Below are positions 2,733 through 64,000 of a stretch of DNA of 64,000 nt, in pieces; the first letter of the stretch is position 1; each line of letters begins with the position of its first letter. This DNA comes from a virus. Lineage: Duplodnaviria > Caudoviricetes. Where the stretch lies: positions 6,074 to 70,073 of the IMG/VR virus record IMGVR_UViG_3300003320_000653, one strand, 5' to 3'. The position numbers and the translations under genes were made by a program. The notes below the pieces were generated by a model. It was not told the DNA's origin and searched no databases. It saw nothing but the letters and a program-made list of their open reading frames with translations.

Positions 2733-2968
2733 TTCTCGATCTCCTCGGCAAGGACTCGCATGCTCCGGTTGGCCTTATTGCCGAAGGGCCTGTAGACGAC
2801 GGCGCCCTTGTCGACGGGCCGCTGGGTCTTCACGCACTTCGAGTGCTTGCGGGCCTTGCATTTGATCCAGAGCTGGTTGGCAAAGAATTCGCCGAAGTAC
2901 TTGCAATCGACTTCGAGGATCCCGGCCGTTATGCGCTTGGCTTTGACGATGGCAACGGCGGCGTTCAT
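2720..2968 (-). CDS. hypothetical protein (basic, Cys-containing)
   Basis: 82 aa from MNAAVAIVK, overlapping its neighbours. Confidence 0.6.
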   Translation of the reverse strand: MNAAVAIVKAKRITAGILEVDCKYFGEFFANQLWIKCKARKHSKCVKTQRPVDKGAVVYRPFGNKANRSMRVLAEEIEKCLS

Positions 2969-3333
2969 GCCTGGACTTCCTTGATAGCGCGGGAAGAGTT
3001 TGGCGCCTCGTCTTCCTGCTCGTCGCCGAGATCCTCGCCTTTGATGGGGAGCAGATGAACGGCCCGGAACCCAGGCAAGCAATTGCAGCCTCGCATTTCC
3101 TGGGGAAGCTCTTCGCTTGCGTTGATCCAGAGGATTGGGCGCTCGGTGAAGGTTCCGCGAACCGCCAGGATGGGGCGGCTGGCGGCCTCGAAGGTCCAGT
3201 ATTGGAACCGGCCCTGGCAAGAGGTCCGGTGTTCCACCAGGGTCACCAGTGCGCCGATGTTTTCCTCGAAGCCCCGGTTCTCACCGATGACGATGCAAAC
3301 GGCGCCCGGCTCAAGTTTGCCTGCAGCCATCAC
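2965..3333 (-). CDS. hypothetical protein
   Basis: 122 aa, overlap-coupled to flanking genes. Confidence 0.65.
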   Translation of the reverse strand: MMAAGKLEPGAVCIVIGENRGFEENIGALVTLVEHRTSCQGRFQYWTFEAASRPILAVRGTFTERPILWINASEELPQEMRGCNCLPGFRAVHLLPIKGEDLGDEQEDEAPNSSRAIKEVQA

Positions 3334-3752
3334 GCCACCCCTTTAATTTTCTTATGCCAACGACGCCCCTTCATTACGCGGCCATTAATTCGGGCCTGTT
3401 CAGCCCGCTGGGTGGCTTTGTGGGGGCTGAGCACGTAGAGTGCATGCATACGGTTTTCCCTTCTCGTGACGTATTCCAAATTGCTTGATCTAGTGTTGCC
3501 TTTGACGCCATCTTTGTGGTTGACCTCCTGCCCCGGAGGACAAGGTCCATGGAAAGCCGCAGCCACTACCTGATGCATCATGTTGTAGTCCATGCCGAAG
3601 ACCTGCAGGTAGCCATCTGAGCGTTGGGCGCCCTTGCTAATGCGCCCGATCCATGTCCCAGGTCCAGCGAGGACCCGCCGTAGCAATCCTTCATTGCTCA
3701 CTTCATAGCGGGGGTCTCCCGGAACGGGAAGCCAAAGGGGCTCCCGTTTCAT
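3330..3752 (-). CDS. NUMOD4/HNH homing endonuclease
   Basis: WLPVPGDPRYEVSNEG (NUMOD4) and HQVVAAAFHG...VNHKDGVKGNTRSSNLEY (HNH_3). Confidence 0.9.
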   Translation of the reverse strand: MKREPLWLPVPGDPRYEVSNEGLLRRVLAGPGTWIGRISKGAQRSDGYLQVFGMDYNMMHQVVAAAFHGPCPPGQEVNHKDGVKGNTRSSNLEYVTRRENRMHALYVLSPHKATQRAEQARINGRVMKGRRWHKKIKGVA

Positions 3753-4471
3753 GGCACTTGAATTAGCTTGTGGATCTGCAGGCTGAGGCGATAGCCGTGC
3801 TTGAGGCAGAGATCGCGCGCCAGATCTCGATTGACGGCGTTGAGCACCTCGTCGTAGTCGTCACAGGGCGAGAGCCAAATGGTATTCATCGCCGAGGGTT
3901 CAGGCCTATAGATATGGCTCACGAGGCCCTTGGTTGCGACTTGGGTGCCGTAGTTGGGCAGGCCATCTGTAGCCAGGATCTCGCCGCCCCGAATGATGTA
4001 CTTCCAGTCGTGGCAGCGCTTCTCGATCTCCGGGTGAACACGGGGCGTCTTGGGGCTGCACACGAACTGAATTCTCCAGGGCTCGTCGAGGTCTTCGAGG
4101 CCCGGCTGCCATAGGGTACCAGCGGTCTCCACCTGAATGAGTTCAGTGCCGCCACGAATGAGGGCATCAGCGAGCCAGGACCAGTCTTGCCGCATGGGCT
4201 CGCCACCCGTCATGACGACGAGCTTGCGCTGCTCCACGCTGAAGTCGCGTTCGATGCGTGCCATGATGTCGCCCAGCTTCTCGGGCATATCGGCGCGGCT
4301 CTCGAATTGCGTGTCGCAGAAATGACAGGCGAGATTGCAGCCCGCCAAGCGGATGAAGAGGGCCGGTCGGCCGCCCTGGGGGCCCTCGCCCTGGATGGTG
4401 TAGAAGATATCCTCCACGGCCAAGACCTGAGGGTTTCGCTGGATAGAGCGAATGGGATTTTTTCCGAACAT
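3749..4471 (-). CDS. queE: 7-carboxy-7-deazaguanine synthase (radical SAM)
   Basis: IFYTIQGEG...FIRLAGCNLACHFCDT, TGGEP, ETAGT, CSPK, RLSLQIHK. Confidence 0.95.
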   Translation of the reverse strand: MFGKNPIRSIQRNPQVLAVEDIFYTIQGEGPQGGRPALFIRLAGCNLACHFCDTQFESRADMPEKLGDIMARIERDFSVEQRKLVVMTGGEPMRQDWSWLADALIRGGTELIQVETAGTLWQPGLEDLDEPWRIQFVCSPKTPRVHPEIEKRCHDWKYIIRGGEILATDGLPNYGTQVATKGLVSHIYRPEPSAMNTIWLSPCDDYDEVLNAVNRDLARDLCLKHGYRLSLQIHKLIQVP

Positions 4472-60242: not shown

Positions 60243-60653
60243 TCAGTTGTAGGCGGCTTCGAGATAGCGGAGGGCGGGGTCCAGGCCATCGACGATGACC
60301 GTGGCGTGGTATTGCAGCCAGAGGCTGAGTTCTTCGCGCGGCTGCATGCTGGCGTTGACGACCACGATAGGCTTGTGCTGCTCCCAGGCAAAGAGGATCT
60401 CCATGCTGGTCCCAACGCTGGGCAGCGCGTAGTAGACGAGGAGCGCCGAGGCCTCCAAGATGTCCGCCTTGTCGGCTTCCACGATGGCCTTGGCGATGCC
60501 TTCCTCGTGCATGCGGGGGCGAGCATCGCGGCGCATCGGGTCGAGGACGGCGTCGTGGCCCCAGACCTTCGCCACGTATTGGCGCCAGTTGTTGCACTCG
60601 GCATCCGTGCGGCCGTGGATGGGCCCGCAGAGGTAGAGCTTATGCTTGTTCAC
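60243..60653 (-). CDS. nucleoside 2-deoxyribosyltransferase / dNMP N-glycosidase-like
   Basis: KLYLCGPI, DP.RR, D..DI......LV.....SVGTSMEI.FA....KPIVV. Confidence 0.85.
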   Translation of the reverse strand: MNKHKLYLCGPIHGRTDAECNNWRQYVAKVWGHDAVLDPMRRDARPRMHEEGIAKAIVEADKADILEASALLVYYALPSVGTSMEILFAWEQHKPIVVVNASMQPREELSLWLQYHATVIVDGLDPALRYLEAAYN

Positions 60654-60835
60654 TTGATTTCCTTCTTTGCTGGTGGTGGAAGAATGCTTTGAGGACTTGC
60701 CCTCGCATGGCTATGGGGATCGACGTAGAAAAAGAAGCTGACGAGGACGTGGGGAAAGACTTTGGAGCCCAGCGTATAGCCGTTCGTCTTGCTGGCCAGA
60801 TGACTGGCGTCCAGACCGGCAAGATAGACCCTCAT
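60650..60835 (-). CDS. small DpdA-N-terminus-like module C
   Basis: MRVYLAG...NGY...HVLVSFFFY; overlap-coupled at both ends. Confidence 0.65.
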   Translation of the reverse strand: MRVYLAGLDASHLASKTNGYTLGSKVFPHVLVSFFFYVDPHSHARASPQSILPPPAKKEIK

Positions 60836-61137
60836 ACAAGCTGAACCCTTGTCTTCGGCGCCTGGACTTCGGCCTGGCTATCGCCTTCATCGAAGATCTC
60901 TTCAGCGTGAGAAGCGAGGAGTGGCGTGAAGGCCTGGGCAAGCTCCTTGGGGTTGGCCTTGCCCTGTGAGGGCACATAGGGATTAGGCATCCCCGAGACG
61001 GCAAGCTGCTGGTCCGGGTTCTTGGTGAACTCGACGAAGCTCACCAGAAGCCTGTTGGCATCACCCGCCAAGAGGCTGGCTCCGTAGCCCGTTGCCATCC
61101 AGTTCTTTGCCGTCGAGCACACGAGGAAGATTCGCAT
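60832..61137 (-). CDS. small DpdA-N-terminus-like module B
   Basis: MRIFLVC...TGY...NRLLVSFVEF; stop overlaps start of module C. Confidence 0.6.
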   Translation of the reverse strand: MRIFLVCSTAKNWMATGYGASLLAGDANRLLVSFVEFTKNPDQQLAVSGMPNPYVPSQGKANPKELAQAFTPLLASHAEEIFDEGDSQAEVQAPKTRVQLV

Positions 61138-61276
61138 AGATTGGGAGGCGCAATTGGCCTTCGAGGAAGTGAAAGCTGTAGAGGGTGAGGCGAAAGTCAG
61201 TGGCGCGCAAGGCATTCACGTAGCCGTCATTGGGACTGGCATAGTTGGCCTTGGCATGCGCCAAATAGACTTTCAC
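61061..61276 (-). CDS. small DpdA-N-terminus-like module A
   Basis: (V)KVYLAH...DGY...RLTLYSFHF; GTG start overlaps upstream TGA. Confidence 0.65.
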   Translation of the reverse strand: MKVYLAHAKANYASPNDGYVNALRATDFRLTLYSFHFLEGQLRLPIYANLPRVLDGKELDGNGLRSQPLGG

Positions 61277-61704
61277 GCCGGGCGCCCGTGCTTGATGATG
61301 AGGCGCTGGATGGCAGCCTTGAGCCTGGCTCGGCGGCCTTGGCTCGGCTCCTTGGCAAGGGCTTCCTTTAGCAGCCGCACGTGCTCAGCCGCAGCTCGGG
61401 GCCAGTTCGCGTATCCCTGACGGGCTCGCTCCTCGTCATCGAGGATCTTTGTCGCGCAGGAGTTCTTGGGAATCGTGACGCTCACCTTGATGGCGACAGG
61501 AACCTGATGGCCGGCAATGACCTTCTTGGAGGCTTCGTCGAACTCGGCTTCTATGCGGACCACCTCAGCGTCAAAGGCATCCCAGTAGGCGCGAGCTTGC
61601 CAGCTCTTGTCCCGGACTTCTCTCGGGAATGGGTGGTTGCGCGGCCCTCGGTTCTTGGCCCCGGCTTTGCCGAGGGCCTCGTAATCAGCTTTTGTCTTTG
61701 CCAT
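61273..61704 (-). CDS. hypothetical basic helical protein in dpd operon
   Basis: 143 aa, GGAG RBS, starts 4 nt after dpdA stop. Confidence 0.7.
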   Translation of the reverse strand: MAKTKADYEALGKAGAKNRGPRNHPFPREVRDKSWQARAYWDAFDAEVVRIEAEFDEASKKVIAGHQVPVAIKVSVTIPKNSCATKILDDEERARQGYANWPRAAAEHVRLLKEALAKEPSQGRRARLKAAIQRLIIKHGRPA

Positions 61705-61707
61705 GGT

Positions 61708-62511
61708 TTAACTCCAGAGTGATTGTTTGCGGACTCCGTCGGGTCTGAAAGGCGCGGCGGCCTTGGCTTCGCTGACGGCCTTGAAGAAAGTCACGTTGCA
61801 TACGGCACGGTGGTAGTAGTGCTCGGCGACTTCCGCGTAGGTCTTCCCGCAGACGGCCAGCCAGCGGTCGACGATAGCGCGCATGGCTGGGCTCAGCTCC
61901 GTGGCGCCGCGCTGGTTGCTGACGGCCACCGTCATCGGCGTTTCGTCGAAGACGAACTCCCCGCCGCGCATGGCAGGCAGGAGAATGCCGCCATTGGCCG
62001 TTGCCTGGATCCACGACGTCGAGTCGACGCTATACCAGGGATAGCGGAAGATCAGGGAGACCGACGTCATGCCGAAACCATGCGTCTTGACCAAAGGCTT
62101 GCCATCGGCGTCTGTGATGCGCTTGAAGAGGCGGTCGAGCCAGAACTTGCGCATGGCACCGGGCACGCCTACAAGGCCCCCAATGCCGATGTAGTCGCAG
62201 CCGTAGTCGAGCATGCGCTGCAGGAAAGCAAAGTCCTCGCCGTAGTGGTAGACGGGCAGCGGGTCGAGGCCCTCGGCCTTCATATAGAGATAGTTCTGCC
62301 ATGTGGCTTCGGCGGCCTCCTGGCGCTGGCGCTCGGTGGCTGCCTTGCCTGGAGACCCTGGGATCACGTCCAGGCAGGCGTAGACTTCGATGTGCTCGAT
62401 GTTGGCCTTGATGAAGGCGCAATACTCATCGATGTCGATGGCCGTGCCCCGACTCCAAGCCGAGTAGGCCCCGCTATCGAGGAAAAAACTGAACTCGCTT
62501 GGGTCGATCAC
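61708..62511 (-). CDS. dpdA: phage DNA 7-deazaguanine transglycosylase (TGT-like), N-terminally truncated
   Basis: FLDSGAYSAW..G..IDIDEY, LDVIPG, PVYHYGE, IGIGGLV, HGFG.T, PWYSVDSTSW. Confidence 0.9.
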   Translation of the reverse strand: MIDPSEFSFFLDSGAYSAWSRGTAIDIDEYCAFIKANIEHIEVYACLDVIPGSPGKAATERQRQEAAEATWQNYLYMKAEGLDPLPVYHYGEDFAFLQRMLDYGCDYIGIGGLVGVPGAMRKFWLDRLFKRITDADGKPLVKTHGFGMTSVSLIFRYPWYSVDSTSWIQATANGGILLPAMRGGEFVFDETPMTVAVSNQRGATELSPAMRAIVDRWLAVCGKTYAEVAEHYYHRAVCNVTFFKAVSEAKAAAPFRPDGVRKQSLWS

Positions 62512-62514
62512 AAT

Positions 62515-63132
62515 TCAGCCCTTTCCCGTGACGTAAGCCAAGAACTCGGCTCTGGCGGCTGGTTGGTCCTTGATGGCGCCGCGAAGCGCCGAGGTGATCG
62601 TCGAGGATCCCTGTTTCTTGATGCCACGCGAGCACATGCAAAAGTGCTTGGCTTCGATCATGACGCCCACGCCGATGGGGTTGAGGTGTTCGACGAGGGC
62701 ATCGGCGATCTGATTCGTGATGCGCTCTTGCACCTGGAGGCGAAGGGCGAAGACATCGGCGAGCCTGGCGAGCTTCGAGAGGCCCACGATGCGCCCATTC
62801 GGGATGTAGGCGATGTGAGCCACGCCGAAGAAGGGCGCCAGATGATGCTCACAATGACTGTAGATCTCGATATCCTTTTGCACGACCATCTCGTCCACGC
62901 CTTCAGCGCCGTCCTCGAAAGTCTTGAGGACTTCGGCGGGATCCTGCGAGTAGCCTGCCGTCCATTCGGCCCATGCCTTGGAAACGCGCATAGGCGTTTC
63001 CAGTAGGCCTGGGCGTCGGTGATCCTCGCCGATGGCAACGAGGAGTTGCTTGATGGCCCCGGCCGCAACGCTCAGGGCTGCGCCCTCCATGACTGGGGCA
63101 AAGCGCTTGTAGGCGCCAACTTCTTTCACCAT
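62515..63132 (-). CDS. folE: GTP cyclohydrolase I
   Basis: R.GLLETP.RV, SHCEHHLAPF.G.AHIAY.P, GLSKLARL, RLQVQE, H.CM.SRG. Confidence 0.95.
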   Translation of the reverse strand: MVKEVGAYKRFAPVMEGAALSVAAGAIKQLLVAIGEDHRRPGLLETPMRVSKAWAEWTAGYSQDPAEVLKTFEDGAEGVDEMVVQKDIEIYSHCEHHLAPFFGVAHIAYIPNGRIVGLSKLARLADVFALRLQVQERITNQIADALVEHLNPIGVGVMIEAKHFCMCSRGIKKQGSSTITSALRGAIKDQPAARAEFLAYVTGKG

Positions 63133-63145
63133 GTCTTGCTTTCCT

Positions 63146-64000
63146 TTAGCCTTGCGGCAGGGCTTCGAGGAGGCCGATACGGCGCAGGGTCTCGGCTTGG
63201 TTGCGGATGGCATCGACCAGGGGCACGCGTGCCCCTGCGCCGATGTAGTCGCGGCGGAAACCATTGTAGTTGCTCGTCGCTGGGAGCTGCTCTTCGCTGA
63301 GCGCGCCTTCGAGATATGCGCGGATCACAAGCGGGTCCGGGAGCGATGTCTGCGAAAAGCCATAGGCGCGCAGCACGCTGGCGTGATCCTTGCCGGTCGG
63401 CGGGTACTGGCCGTCGTAGGCCGTGTGGCTGAAGGCCAGCCAGGCGAGCTTGTCCACGCCCAGCCGCAGGAGCTGTTGGATGCTCTCGGCCTTGCTGAGG
63501 TTCATGAGGGGCGTGAGAAGGCTGATGAAGCGCACGTCGGCAAAGTCGTAGCCCATGGCCTCGTTGATGGTCTTCTCCTGGGCTTGGATGAACTCGAGGC
63601 GGCAGTCCGGGTAGTTGGCGTTGTCGGCCTGACAGACGCCCGTCATCATCATCGTGGCGCCCATTGCCGCTGCCCGGTTGGCGGCCAGCGTGAGGAAGAG
63701 CGCATTGCGCATCGGCACGAAAGTCTTCTCCACACGGTCGCCGATCGTAGCCTCCATGCTCGCGTGATCGGCGTAGGTCTCCAGCTCCTCGCCCGGATTG
63801 GTCAGCGGGCTCATGCCGGCCAGGGCGGGCACTTGGCAGACCTCGAAGCCATTGGTGCCAGCCAGAGCCGCCACCATTTTCGCGCTCTGGATCTCACGGC
63901 TGTGGCGCTGGTTGTAGTCGAAGCAGATGGCATGCACTTCGTCGCAGACGCCGCGCGAGCGCATGTCCGTGGCGATGGCAAGGCAGGTCGTGGAATCCTG
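63146..64000 (-). CDS. queC: 7-cyano-7-deazaguanine synthase (5' end beyond window)
   Basis: QDSTTCL, FDYNQRH..E, TFVP.RNALFL, GV...D...YPDCR.EFI, TPLM.LSKA. Confidence 0.92.
   Translation of the reverse strand, partial: QDSTTCLAIATDMRSRGVCDEVHAICFDYNQRHSREIQSAKMVAALAGTNGFEVCQVPALAGMSPLTNPGEELETYADHASMEATIGDRVEKTFVPMRNALFLTLAANRAAAMGATMMMTGVCQADNANYPDCRLEFIQAQEKTINEAMGYDFADVRFISLLTPLMNLSKAESIQQLLRLGVDKLAWLAFSHTAYDGQYPPTGKDHASVLRAYGFSQTSLPDPLVIRAYLEGALSEEQLPATSNYNGFRRDYIGAGARVPLVDAIRNQAETLRRIGLLEALPQG

Follow-up and report, generated by a model that had tools for sequence, protein, structure and literature searches.

DpdA exchanges guanine in DNA for a 7-deazaguanine and is the signature enzyme of 7-deazaguanine DNA modification in phages; it has so far been treated as a single protein. 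In a triosephosphate isomerase (TIM) barrel the loop between beta1 and alpha1 and the region following beta2 lie on the catalytic side, which here is the side facing DNA. Canonical phage enzymes (DpdA1 of CAjan and 9g, and of the Queuovirinae JG054, yong3 and HD01) carry the beta1-alpha1-beta2 segment within one chain of about 306 residues. The DpdA of Salmonella Montevideo (7UI4; PMC10164549) is a single chain of 413 residues with a Zn site and a large Ins8, and needs the ATPase DpdB; its crystal structure places the family-specific insertions Ins1 and Ins2, the beta1/alpha1 and beta2/alpha2 loops, on the active-site face. The present analysis concerns a dpdA locus in the last 64 kb (64,000 nucleotides, referred to throughout as the window) of the 70,073-nt IMG/VR virus record IMGVR_UViG_3300003320_000653, a record rated complete whose end is also the end of the window. 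At this locus dpdA encodes a short core without the first quarter of the barrel, and three small genes downstream encode segments homologous to that quarter, at least one of which probably completes the barrel in trans.

The DpdA core

The core and the three small genes are located as follows, in window coordinates.

61708-62511, minus strand: dpdA core, a DNA-guanine transglycosylase without beta1-alpha1-beta2; 267 residues, GTG start, PHROG 887.
61061-61276, minus strand: mini-protein A; 71 residues, GTG start; residues 1 to about 42 are a type A unit.
60832-61137, minus strand: mini-protein B; 101 residues counted from MRIFLVC; residues 1-45 are a type B unit, followed by an acidic tail.
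60650-60835, minus strand: mini-protein C; 61 residues, ATG start; a type C unit, the most conserved type.

The motif FLDSGAYS starts at core residue 10, and the stop codon of folE lies in frame two codons upstream of the core start (GGC TGA ATT GTG ATC GAC). The original prediction, made from the letters of the window, held that DpdA starts nine residues before this motif with no room for an N-terminal extension, and that it lacks the first beta-alpha-beta unit of the barrel. Reading of the sequence confirmed the former. The latter was borne out by the match to PHROG 887 (E 3e-50), which covers profile positions 57-274 only and leaves positions 1-56 unmatched, and by a six-stranded predicted core. 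A second family, PHROG 7068, was matched at E 1.4e-18, and 240 phage records matched the core by tblastn; no Pfam family matched it, and a sequence search of the PDB was also empty. In CAjan and other canonical relatives about 60 residues precede DSGA.

AlphaFold2 (AF2) models were made of two close relatives, both natural fusions of an N-terminal unit (type U, below) and a core. The core was confident, with a predicted local distance difference test score (pLDDT) of 86-97, and had six strands of the barrel, of which strand one carries DSGA and the final strand YSVDS; a complete (beta/alpha)8 barrel in one chain was not found in the core. When these models were searched with Foldseek the best match was the bacterial DpdA 7ui4 (E 4.2e-4), and VIA-align superposed them on QTRT1 with Z 14.5 and a root mean square deviation of 4.1 over 237 aligned residues. 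Residues D12 (DSGA) and D163 (YSVDS) are invariant in 66 sequences, as are D48 and H144-G145. From motif and strand position we infer that D12 and D163 are the equivalents of Asp95 and Asp256 in 7UI4. The structural Zn motif CxCxxC...H, a site that defines bacterial DpdA and tRNA-guanine transglycosylase (TGT), was not found in the 267-residue core.

The small downstream proteins

The three mini-proteins share one pattern. In A it reads V3-Y4-L5, G18-Y19 and L32-Y-S-F35; in B, I3-F4-L5, G17-Y18 and L31-V-S-F34; in C, V3-Y4-L5, G19-Y20 and L31-V-S-F34. That the three open reading frames (ORFs) are paralogous, with [VI][YF]L at residues 3-5, GY at 17-20 and LxSF at 31-35, had been noticed beforehand and was confirmed both in the sequence and by hhalign. 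Profiles for hhalign were built from the units of other genomes only, with the window sequences excluded. Each mini-protein matched its own type with a probability of 98.8-99.8% (A 98.8%, C 99.8%), and the types matched one another over nearly all 40 residues (A with B 96.8%, B with C 96.4%, B with U 94.7%, A with U 84%, C with U 82%). Since type U is the physical N-terminus of the core in many homologues, these matches tie A, B and C to the DpdA N-terminus. A hidden Markov model (HMM) of type U alone scored A at 8.6, B at 1.1 and C at 3.1 bits, and the link to U became clear only after HMM iteration over related loci and profile-profile comparison. None of the three matched a Pfam or PHROGs family up to E 1, and no further unit was found elsewhere in the window.

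With the B profile, 73 representative clusters were retrieved from 1.84 billion proteins. Sixty-seven of them represent proteins that stand alone, are 54-114 residues long and have the unit in positions 1-45, and none of the 73 is of the size of DpdA. Within this family the two strands and residues G17-Y18, L31, S33 and F34 are nearly invariant, the loop at 7-16 is hypervariable and positions after residue 37 vary freely. In A and C the residues of the strands are preserved, as are the G-Y and L-x-S-F motifs, and the differences fall in the beta1/alpha1 loop and in the tail that follows beta2.

Structure models

The window core was modelled in complex with residues 1-45 of B, using our own alignments. 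The interaction prediction score from aligned errors (ipSAE) was 0.88, 0.91 and 0.88, against 0.01 for the best of three controls; in calibration the mark applied to this score is reached by 58 of 80 solved complexes and by 2 of 110 mismatched pairs, counts that are rough here as own alignments were used. The runs agreed in at least 94% of contacts, with a partner pLDDT of at least 76. Residues 29-34 of B (RLLVSF) lay on core residues 8-11, the strand ahead of DSGA, and residues 3-5 of B on core residues 161-163, the YSVD strand, while the B helix packed on the C-terminal helices of the core (232-251). The modelled order of core 161-163, B 3-5, B 29-34 and core 8-11 is that of strands 8, 1, 2 and 3 of a closed (beta/alpha)8 barrel. 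Closure of the barrel by a peptide, for which modelling of the complex had been proposed, was thus obtained with B, whose strands are predicted to stand between the last and the first strands of the core. In these models B fits as the missing piece of the barrel.

Units in related phages

Of the 120 DpdA homologues nearest to the window core (62-92% identity), about 40% have one to three in-frame units of this kind at the N-terminus. The start M-I-x-P-x-x-F-x-F-F-L-D-S-G of the window core is shared by 65, and 38 have one extra in-frame unit of about 38 residues at the N-terminus (M-x-x-W-L-x-G ... L-x-S-F). Two N-terminal units are present in homologues P0009 and P0013 and three in P0040, and every unit starts with M. 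Fused forms retain M, occasionally V or L, at the position of the core start, where the codon was ATG or GTG in 15 of the 15 loci read; its retention suggests that the core can still be initiated separately even where the frames of U and core are fused.

Iteration of an HMM over related viral contigs revealed units at each close locus. Units lie around the core in all of the approximately 16 loci that are closely related, and the 13 with both flanks on the contig have from one (B only, in loci L012, L042 and L049) to five (L016). Five types were recognised, designated U, A, B, C and D. Type U immediately precedes the core; it is in frame in Edwardsiella phage vB_EpM_ZHS (ZHS), L005, L009-L011 and L016, forms a separate ORF of 41 residues in L003, and has a frameshift in L007. 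Type A occurs in L003, L015 and L039 as well as in the window; type B in every related locus; type C in the window, ZHS, L003, L010, L016 and L039; and type D in L005 and L008. The window has lost U, since folE abuts the core. Its A/B/C layout, with A overlapping B, recurs in L003 and L039. A survey of related phages for the same split and for variation in copy number had been suggested; the split proved to be common, with 1-5 units per locus. ZHS is the nearest cultured relative. Its DpdA is 92% identical to that of the window and annotated as 'queuine tRNA-ribosyltransferase', its mini-ORFs are annotated as 'hypothetical proteins', and among 50,697 records of isolate phages it is the only one matched by window B and C in tblastn.

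The tails of type B vary. An acidic tail is found in the window (60832-61000), L005, L006 and L039; a tail rich in R and K in L007-L009, L011, L012 and L042; and a tail with four Cys (CxxxC...CxxxC, possibly a Zn site) in L010 (5822-6157), L015 (1096-1452) and L049 (3822-4091). In L014 two full-length DpdA paralogues, each with a fused N-terminal unit, lie in tandem at 2038-2916 and about 2900-3900 (the latter also recovered as L051).

Among distant DpdAs, 35-44% identical to the window core, many cores also start 3-12 residues ahead of the DSGA strand. Nearly all such short cores have one or two small ORFs downstream, 48-95 residues long, with the canonical N-terminal pattern M-x-[IL]-Y-F-A-G...L-x-S-[FY]. 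Examples are L057 (MKLYFAGGSKSGY...WLSSFHG), L064 (MKIYFAGT...HLESYFAF) and L067 (MIIFFAGNFE...NRLSSFFF); L054 and L066 have two downstream mini-ORFs each. The mini-ORFs of L057 and L067 had no tblastn match among the isolate phage records. In L061 (2992-4113) and L063 (2902-4101) the C-terminus of the core continues in frame into a unit, followed in L061 by a long tail rich in K and R, and these two proteins are single-chain circular permutants. The original prediction had offered a fragmented circular permutation as one reading of the locus, and the lone downstream mini-ORFs and C-terminal fusions of distant clades bear it out. These gene arrangements show the split to be widespread, common to many uncultivated phages and older than the clade of the window, and N-fused, split, C-fused and multi-copy forms of one barrel all exist naturally. 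In L094, L098 and L099 distant canonical DpdAs are preceded by two or three in-frame beta1-like repeats (MNIFLAG/MDIFLAG/MNIHLAG), upstream of the match at about 3001, a sign that the 5' end of dpdA duplicates readily.

The distribution of units bears on whether the core needs them. The core folds confidently without a unit in AF2, and every catalytic residue lies within it; both would suit a core that is active alone, for example as a dimer shielding its open edge, with the mini-proteins acting on host TGT or Dpd proteins or on another phage protein. That explanation is hard to reconcile with units that always adjoin the core, even across clades only 35-44% identical to one another, and that some lineages have fused to the one or the other end of it, or with a modelled fit as specific as that of B (0.88 vs 0.01), and is considered highly unlikely.

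Selection and module exchange

The ratio of nonsynonymous to synonymous substitution rates (dN/dS) was 0.05-0.11 for C, 0.04-0.26 for B between closest orthologues, 0.25 for A over residues 1-40 and 0.07-0.16 for the core, values that are rough because synonymous sites are saturated (dS about 1-2). Purifying selection acts on B and on C. Window B (60835-61137) is 65% identical to the B of L005 (6244-6501) and 36-39% identical to those of L003 (6502-6780) and L004, whereas the cores relate in the opposite way, with 79% identity to L005 and 91% to L003 and L004. Because the relationships of B and of the core are opposed, the comparison indicates that modules move between phage genomes.

Such exchange, together with a copy number and position that vary and with copies that are frameshifted or partial (U in L007, and a copy at 4660 in L016), might also be expected if the 5' end of dpdA had duplicated and recombined repeatedly and left behind units that are without function and in decay. 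Their frames, start codons and motifs are nevertheless intact although synonymous sites are saturated, the dN/dS of B and C is far below 1, and 67 stand-alone clusters exist in public data; decay of this kind is therefore given almost no weight. Both this explanation and that of a core active alone are disfavoured by the constant adjacency of units and core in distant clades, the fusions at both ends, the selection on B and C, and the specific model.

Proposed mechanism

In the proposed mechanism the 267-residue core would contribute six of the eight strands and all catalytic residues, including the Asp of DSGA, which is the general acid/base, and that of YSVDS, and a unit of about 40 residues, heading a small protein encoded downstream, would supply beta1-alpha1-beta2 in trans. 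The locus would then be a circular permutation at the level of gene order, with the missing first quarter encoded downstream of the core. Strands 1 and 2 of the unit would sit between the two catalytic strands and bring with them the loops that follow. B would be the constant type of partner, and its paralogues A and C would serve as alternative subunits, giving holoenzymes with different DNA-facing surfaces.

Completion of the barrel in trans by at least one unit is judged likely. The analysis shows that the core lacks the segment, that the units are homologous, conserved and under selection, and that B fits in the model. That the two parts bind in the cell, that A and C bind as B does and that the alternatives alter the action of the enzyme we infer from these results. 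The most likely composition is a two-part DpdA of core and B, with A and C as alternative subunits; A and C differ from B in the loop and tail that would lie on the DNA-facing side, which makes alternative subunits the probable reading of them.

Several observations count against this mechanism. The passing score of the complex may reflect a memory in the model of whole TGT and DpdA barrels in the PDB, and it speaks for fit, not for binding; the model also covers B only among the three mini-proteins. In an AF2 model of the fusion of U and core of the ZHS type, the cis U was not confidently placed (pLDDT 42-57). A consensus-like fusion, P0111, was modelled with U as strand-helix-strand at a pLDDT of only 71-83, and since its VIA-align superposition starts at model residues 35-44, the placement of U on TGT strands 1-2 was not confirmed. 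B has no Shine-Dalgarno sequence and starts inside the ORF of A. The saturation of dS leaves the selection values approximate. The profile alignment to DpdA N-termini that had been proposed as a check succeeded for the fused U units (82-94.7%); for the distant canonical ones the similarity of segments as short as A, B and C was not significant by itself (hhalign probability below 5%). An HMM of canonical N-termini run over 1344 pieces of the window ranked C third, B fifth and A sixth, with weak E values of 1.7-14, and the pattern M-x-[IL]-Y-F-A-G ... [IL]-L-x-S-[YF]-x-Y is visible in both the units and the canonical N-termini.

The roles of A and C may also be read differently. B is universal, and is the lone unit in L012, L042, L049 and most distant clades; A evolves faster (dN/dS 0.25), and cis U is poorly placed by AF2. 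B could accordingly be the sole structural partner, with A and C (U and D in relatives) having become non-productive plugs that time or limit DpdA, or chaperones of the core. Against this, the constraint on C equals that on the core (dN/dS 0.05-0.11), and C retains what B uses at the modelled interface, namely the residues of the strands and the G-Y and S-F motifs, although sequence cannot tell an inhibitor from an alternative subunit. A sole role for B in the barrel is regarded as improbable, and alternative subunits are retained as the preferred role of A and C.

Whether alternative subunits would go further and change the preference of the enzyme for a motif or a base is more speculative, and such a change is considered possible though doubtful. 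One core might combine with any of A, B and C (U and D elsewhere) as a combinatorial transglycosylase, and this could tentatively be supposed to reprogram the DNA motif or the 7-deazaguanine base that the enzyme handles. The means might conceivably be the hypervariable loops on the active-site face together with the acidic, basic or Cys-rich tails. It is likewise a guess, and a cautious one, that the modules are exchanged as cassettes in an arms race with restriction and DNA-glycosylase defences. Phage DpdAs are reported to differ in target motif, two motifs being described for CAjan (PMC7544227) and a single GA motif for iggy (PMC10484667), and such differences would fit units that set specificity.

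The operon and neighbouring genes

The genes form a tightly packed operon on the minus strand, in the order queC, folE, dpdA, orf143, A, B, C and a gene resembling nucleoside 2-deoxyribosyltransferase (NDT), followed by a sliding clamp and DNA polymerase A. The remaining members of the operon are as follows.

63146-64000, minus strand: queC; PF06508, E 4.5e-38; cut by the record end.
62515-63132, minus strand: folE, GTP cyclohydrolase I; PF01227, E 3.4e-71; abuts the dpdA start.
61273-61704, minus strand: orf143, 143 residues, function unassigned; lies between the core and the units.
60243-60653, minus strand: NDT-like gene; PF05014, E 4.9e-9, profile positions 1-102 of 117.

The genes queD and queE did not occur in the part of the record that was read, and its first 6 kb may contain them. 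For orf143 neither Pfam nor PHROGs gave a family. The gene occurs in ZHS, L003 and L005-L008 but not in L009-L012 or L016, where type B directly follows the core; it could be either an accessory of the system or an unrelated insertion.

The GTG of A overlaps the stop of orf143 (GTGA), the ATG of C overlaps the stop of B (ATGA), and the stop of C overlaps the GTG of the NDT-like gene (GTGA). The frame of B is open up to 61215, and B starts 76 nt within the A ORF in the +1 frame, so that the A tail is the start region of B read out of frame. The sequence upstream of the B start is GCGCCTCCC in both the window and L003, with no Shine-Dalgarno motif. The overlap of A and B is also seen in L003 (6363-6783), and in L039 (4386-4815) B starts 142 nt within the A ORF. 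In L015 A and B share one frame, and B has its own AGGAG. A programmed frameshift from A to B was considered and rejected, given the shared frame in L015, the +1 offset in the window, L003 and L039, and an A tail that is not conserved as protein; from this arrangement, overlapping genes with independent initiation of B appear more likely.

The NDT-like gene is a neighbour and no part of the split enzyme. It is translationally coupled to C, is kept in ZHS (84% identity) and thereby stands beside the gene of a base-exchange enzyme, DpdA, in both phages. The possibility that the units are N-terminal pieces of the NDT-like protein, since both start M-K-[IL]-Y-L-x-G, was also rejected: the NDT gene is complete, and units are fused to DpdA cores in relatives.

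Comparison with known systems

A split, truncated, permuted or multi-subunit DpdA was not found described in the main DpdA papers or in a search of the full-text literature, in keeping with the earlier statement that this architecture was not known to have been described. Were a separately encoded quarter of the barrel to be required by a large group of phage DpdAs, expression of an annotated 'dpdA' alone would fail, and annotation would be missing the small partner genes. The multiple paralogous partners would offer a natural system in which a swappable module of 40 residues may set sequence specificity. One cultured phage, Edwardsiella phage vB_EpM_ZHS, has the arrangement, which makes it directly testable.

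The canonical phage DpdA1 is of the same superfamily as the window core and shares its operon context (folE, queC/D/E, clamp and polymerase), with 35-39% identity from the DSGA strand onward. The N-terminus of the CAjan enzyme (TNGY, PHILESYHYV) resembles that of C (TNGY, PHVLVSFFFYV). The canonical enzyme holds beta1-alpha1-beta2 within its one chain, whereas in the window the segment is represented by three separate small genes downstream. Like the window core, the Salmonella Montevideo DpdA is a TIM-barrel DNA transglycosylase with its general acid Asp on strand 3 and its nucleophile Asp on strand 8; unlike it, the window core is without CxCxxC, and no dpdB was seen in the operon of the window. 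The eukaryotic TGT QTRT1/QTRT2 (7owz and 6h42 among the fold matches) is a hetero-oligomeric enzyme of the TGT family, as is proposed here, but each of its subunits has a whole barrel, whereas in the window the barrel itself would be divided between two chains.

Two further precedents concern the division of such proteins. In some archaea the gene for archaeosine TGT is split, a cut that separates the catalytic from the C-terminal domains and is not known to pass through the barrel. TIM barrels that have been split or permuted by engineering, such as the halves of HisF, are a precedent for fragment complementation in laboratory constructs. To our knowledge, neither the archaeal split TGT nor the barrel-fragment constructs have several alternative fragments. 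If the proposed mechanism is correct, the DpdA loci described here would represent natural complementation of TIM-barrel fragments combined with circular permutation, with all stages (N-fused, split, C-fused and multi-copy) present.

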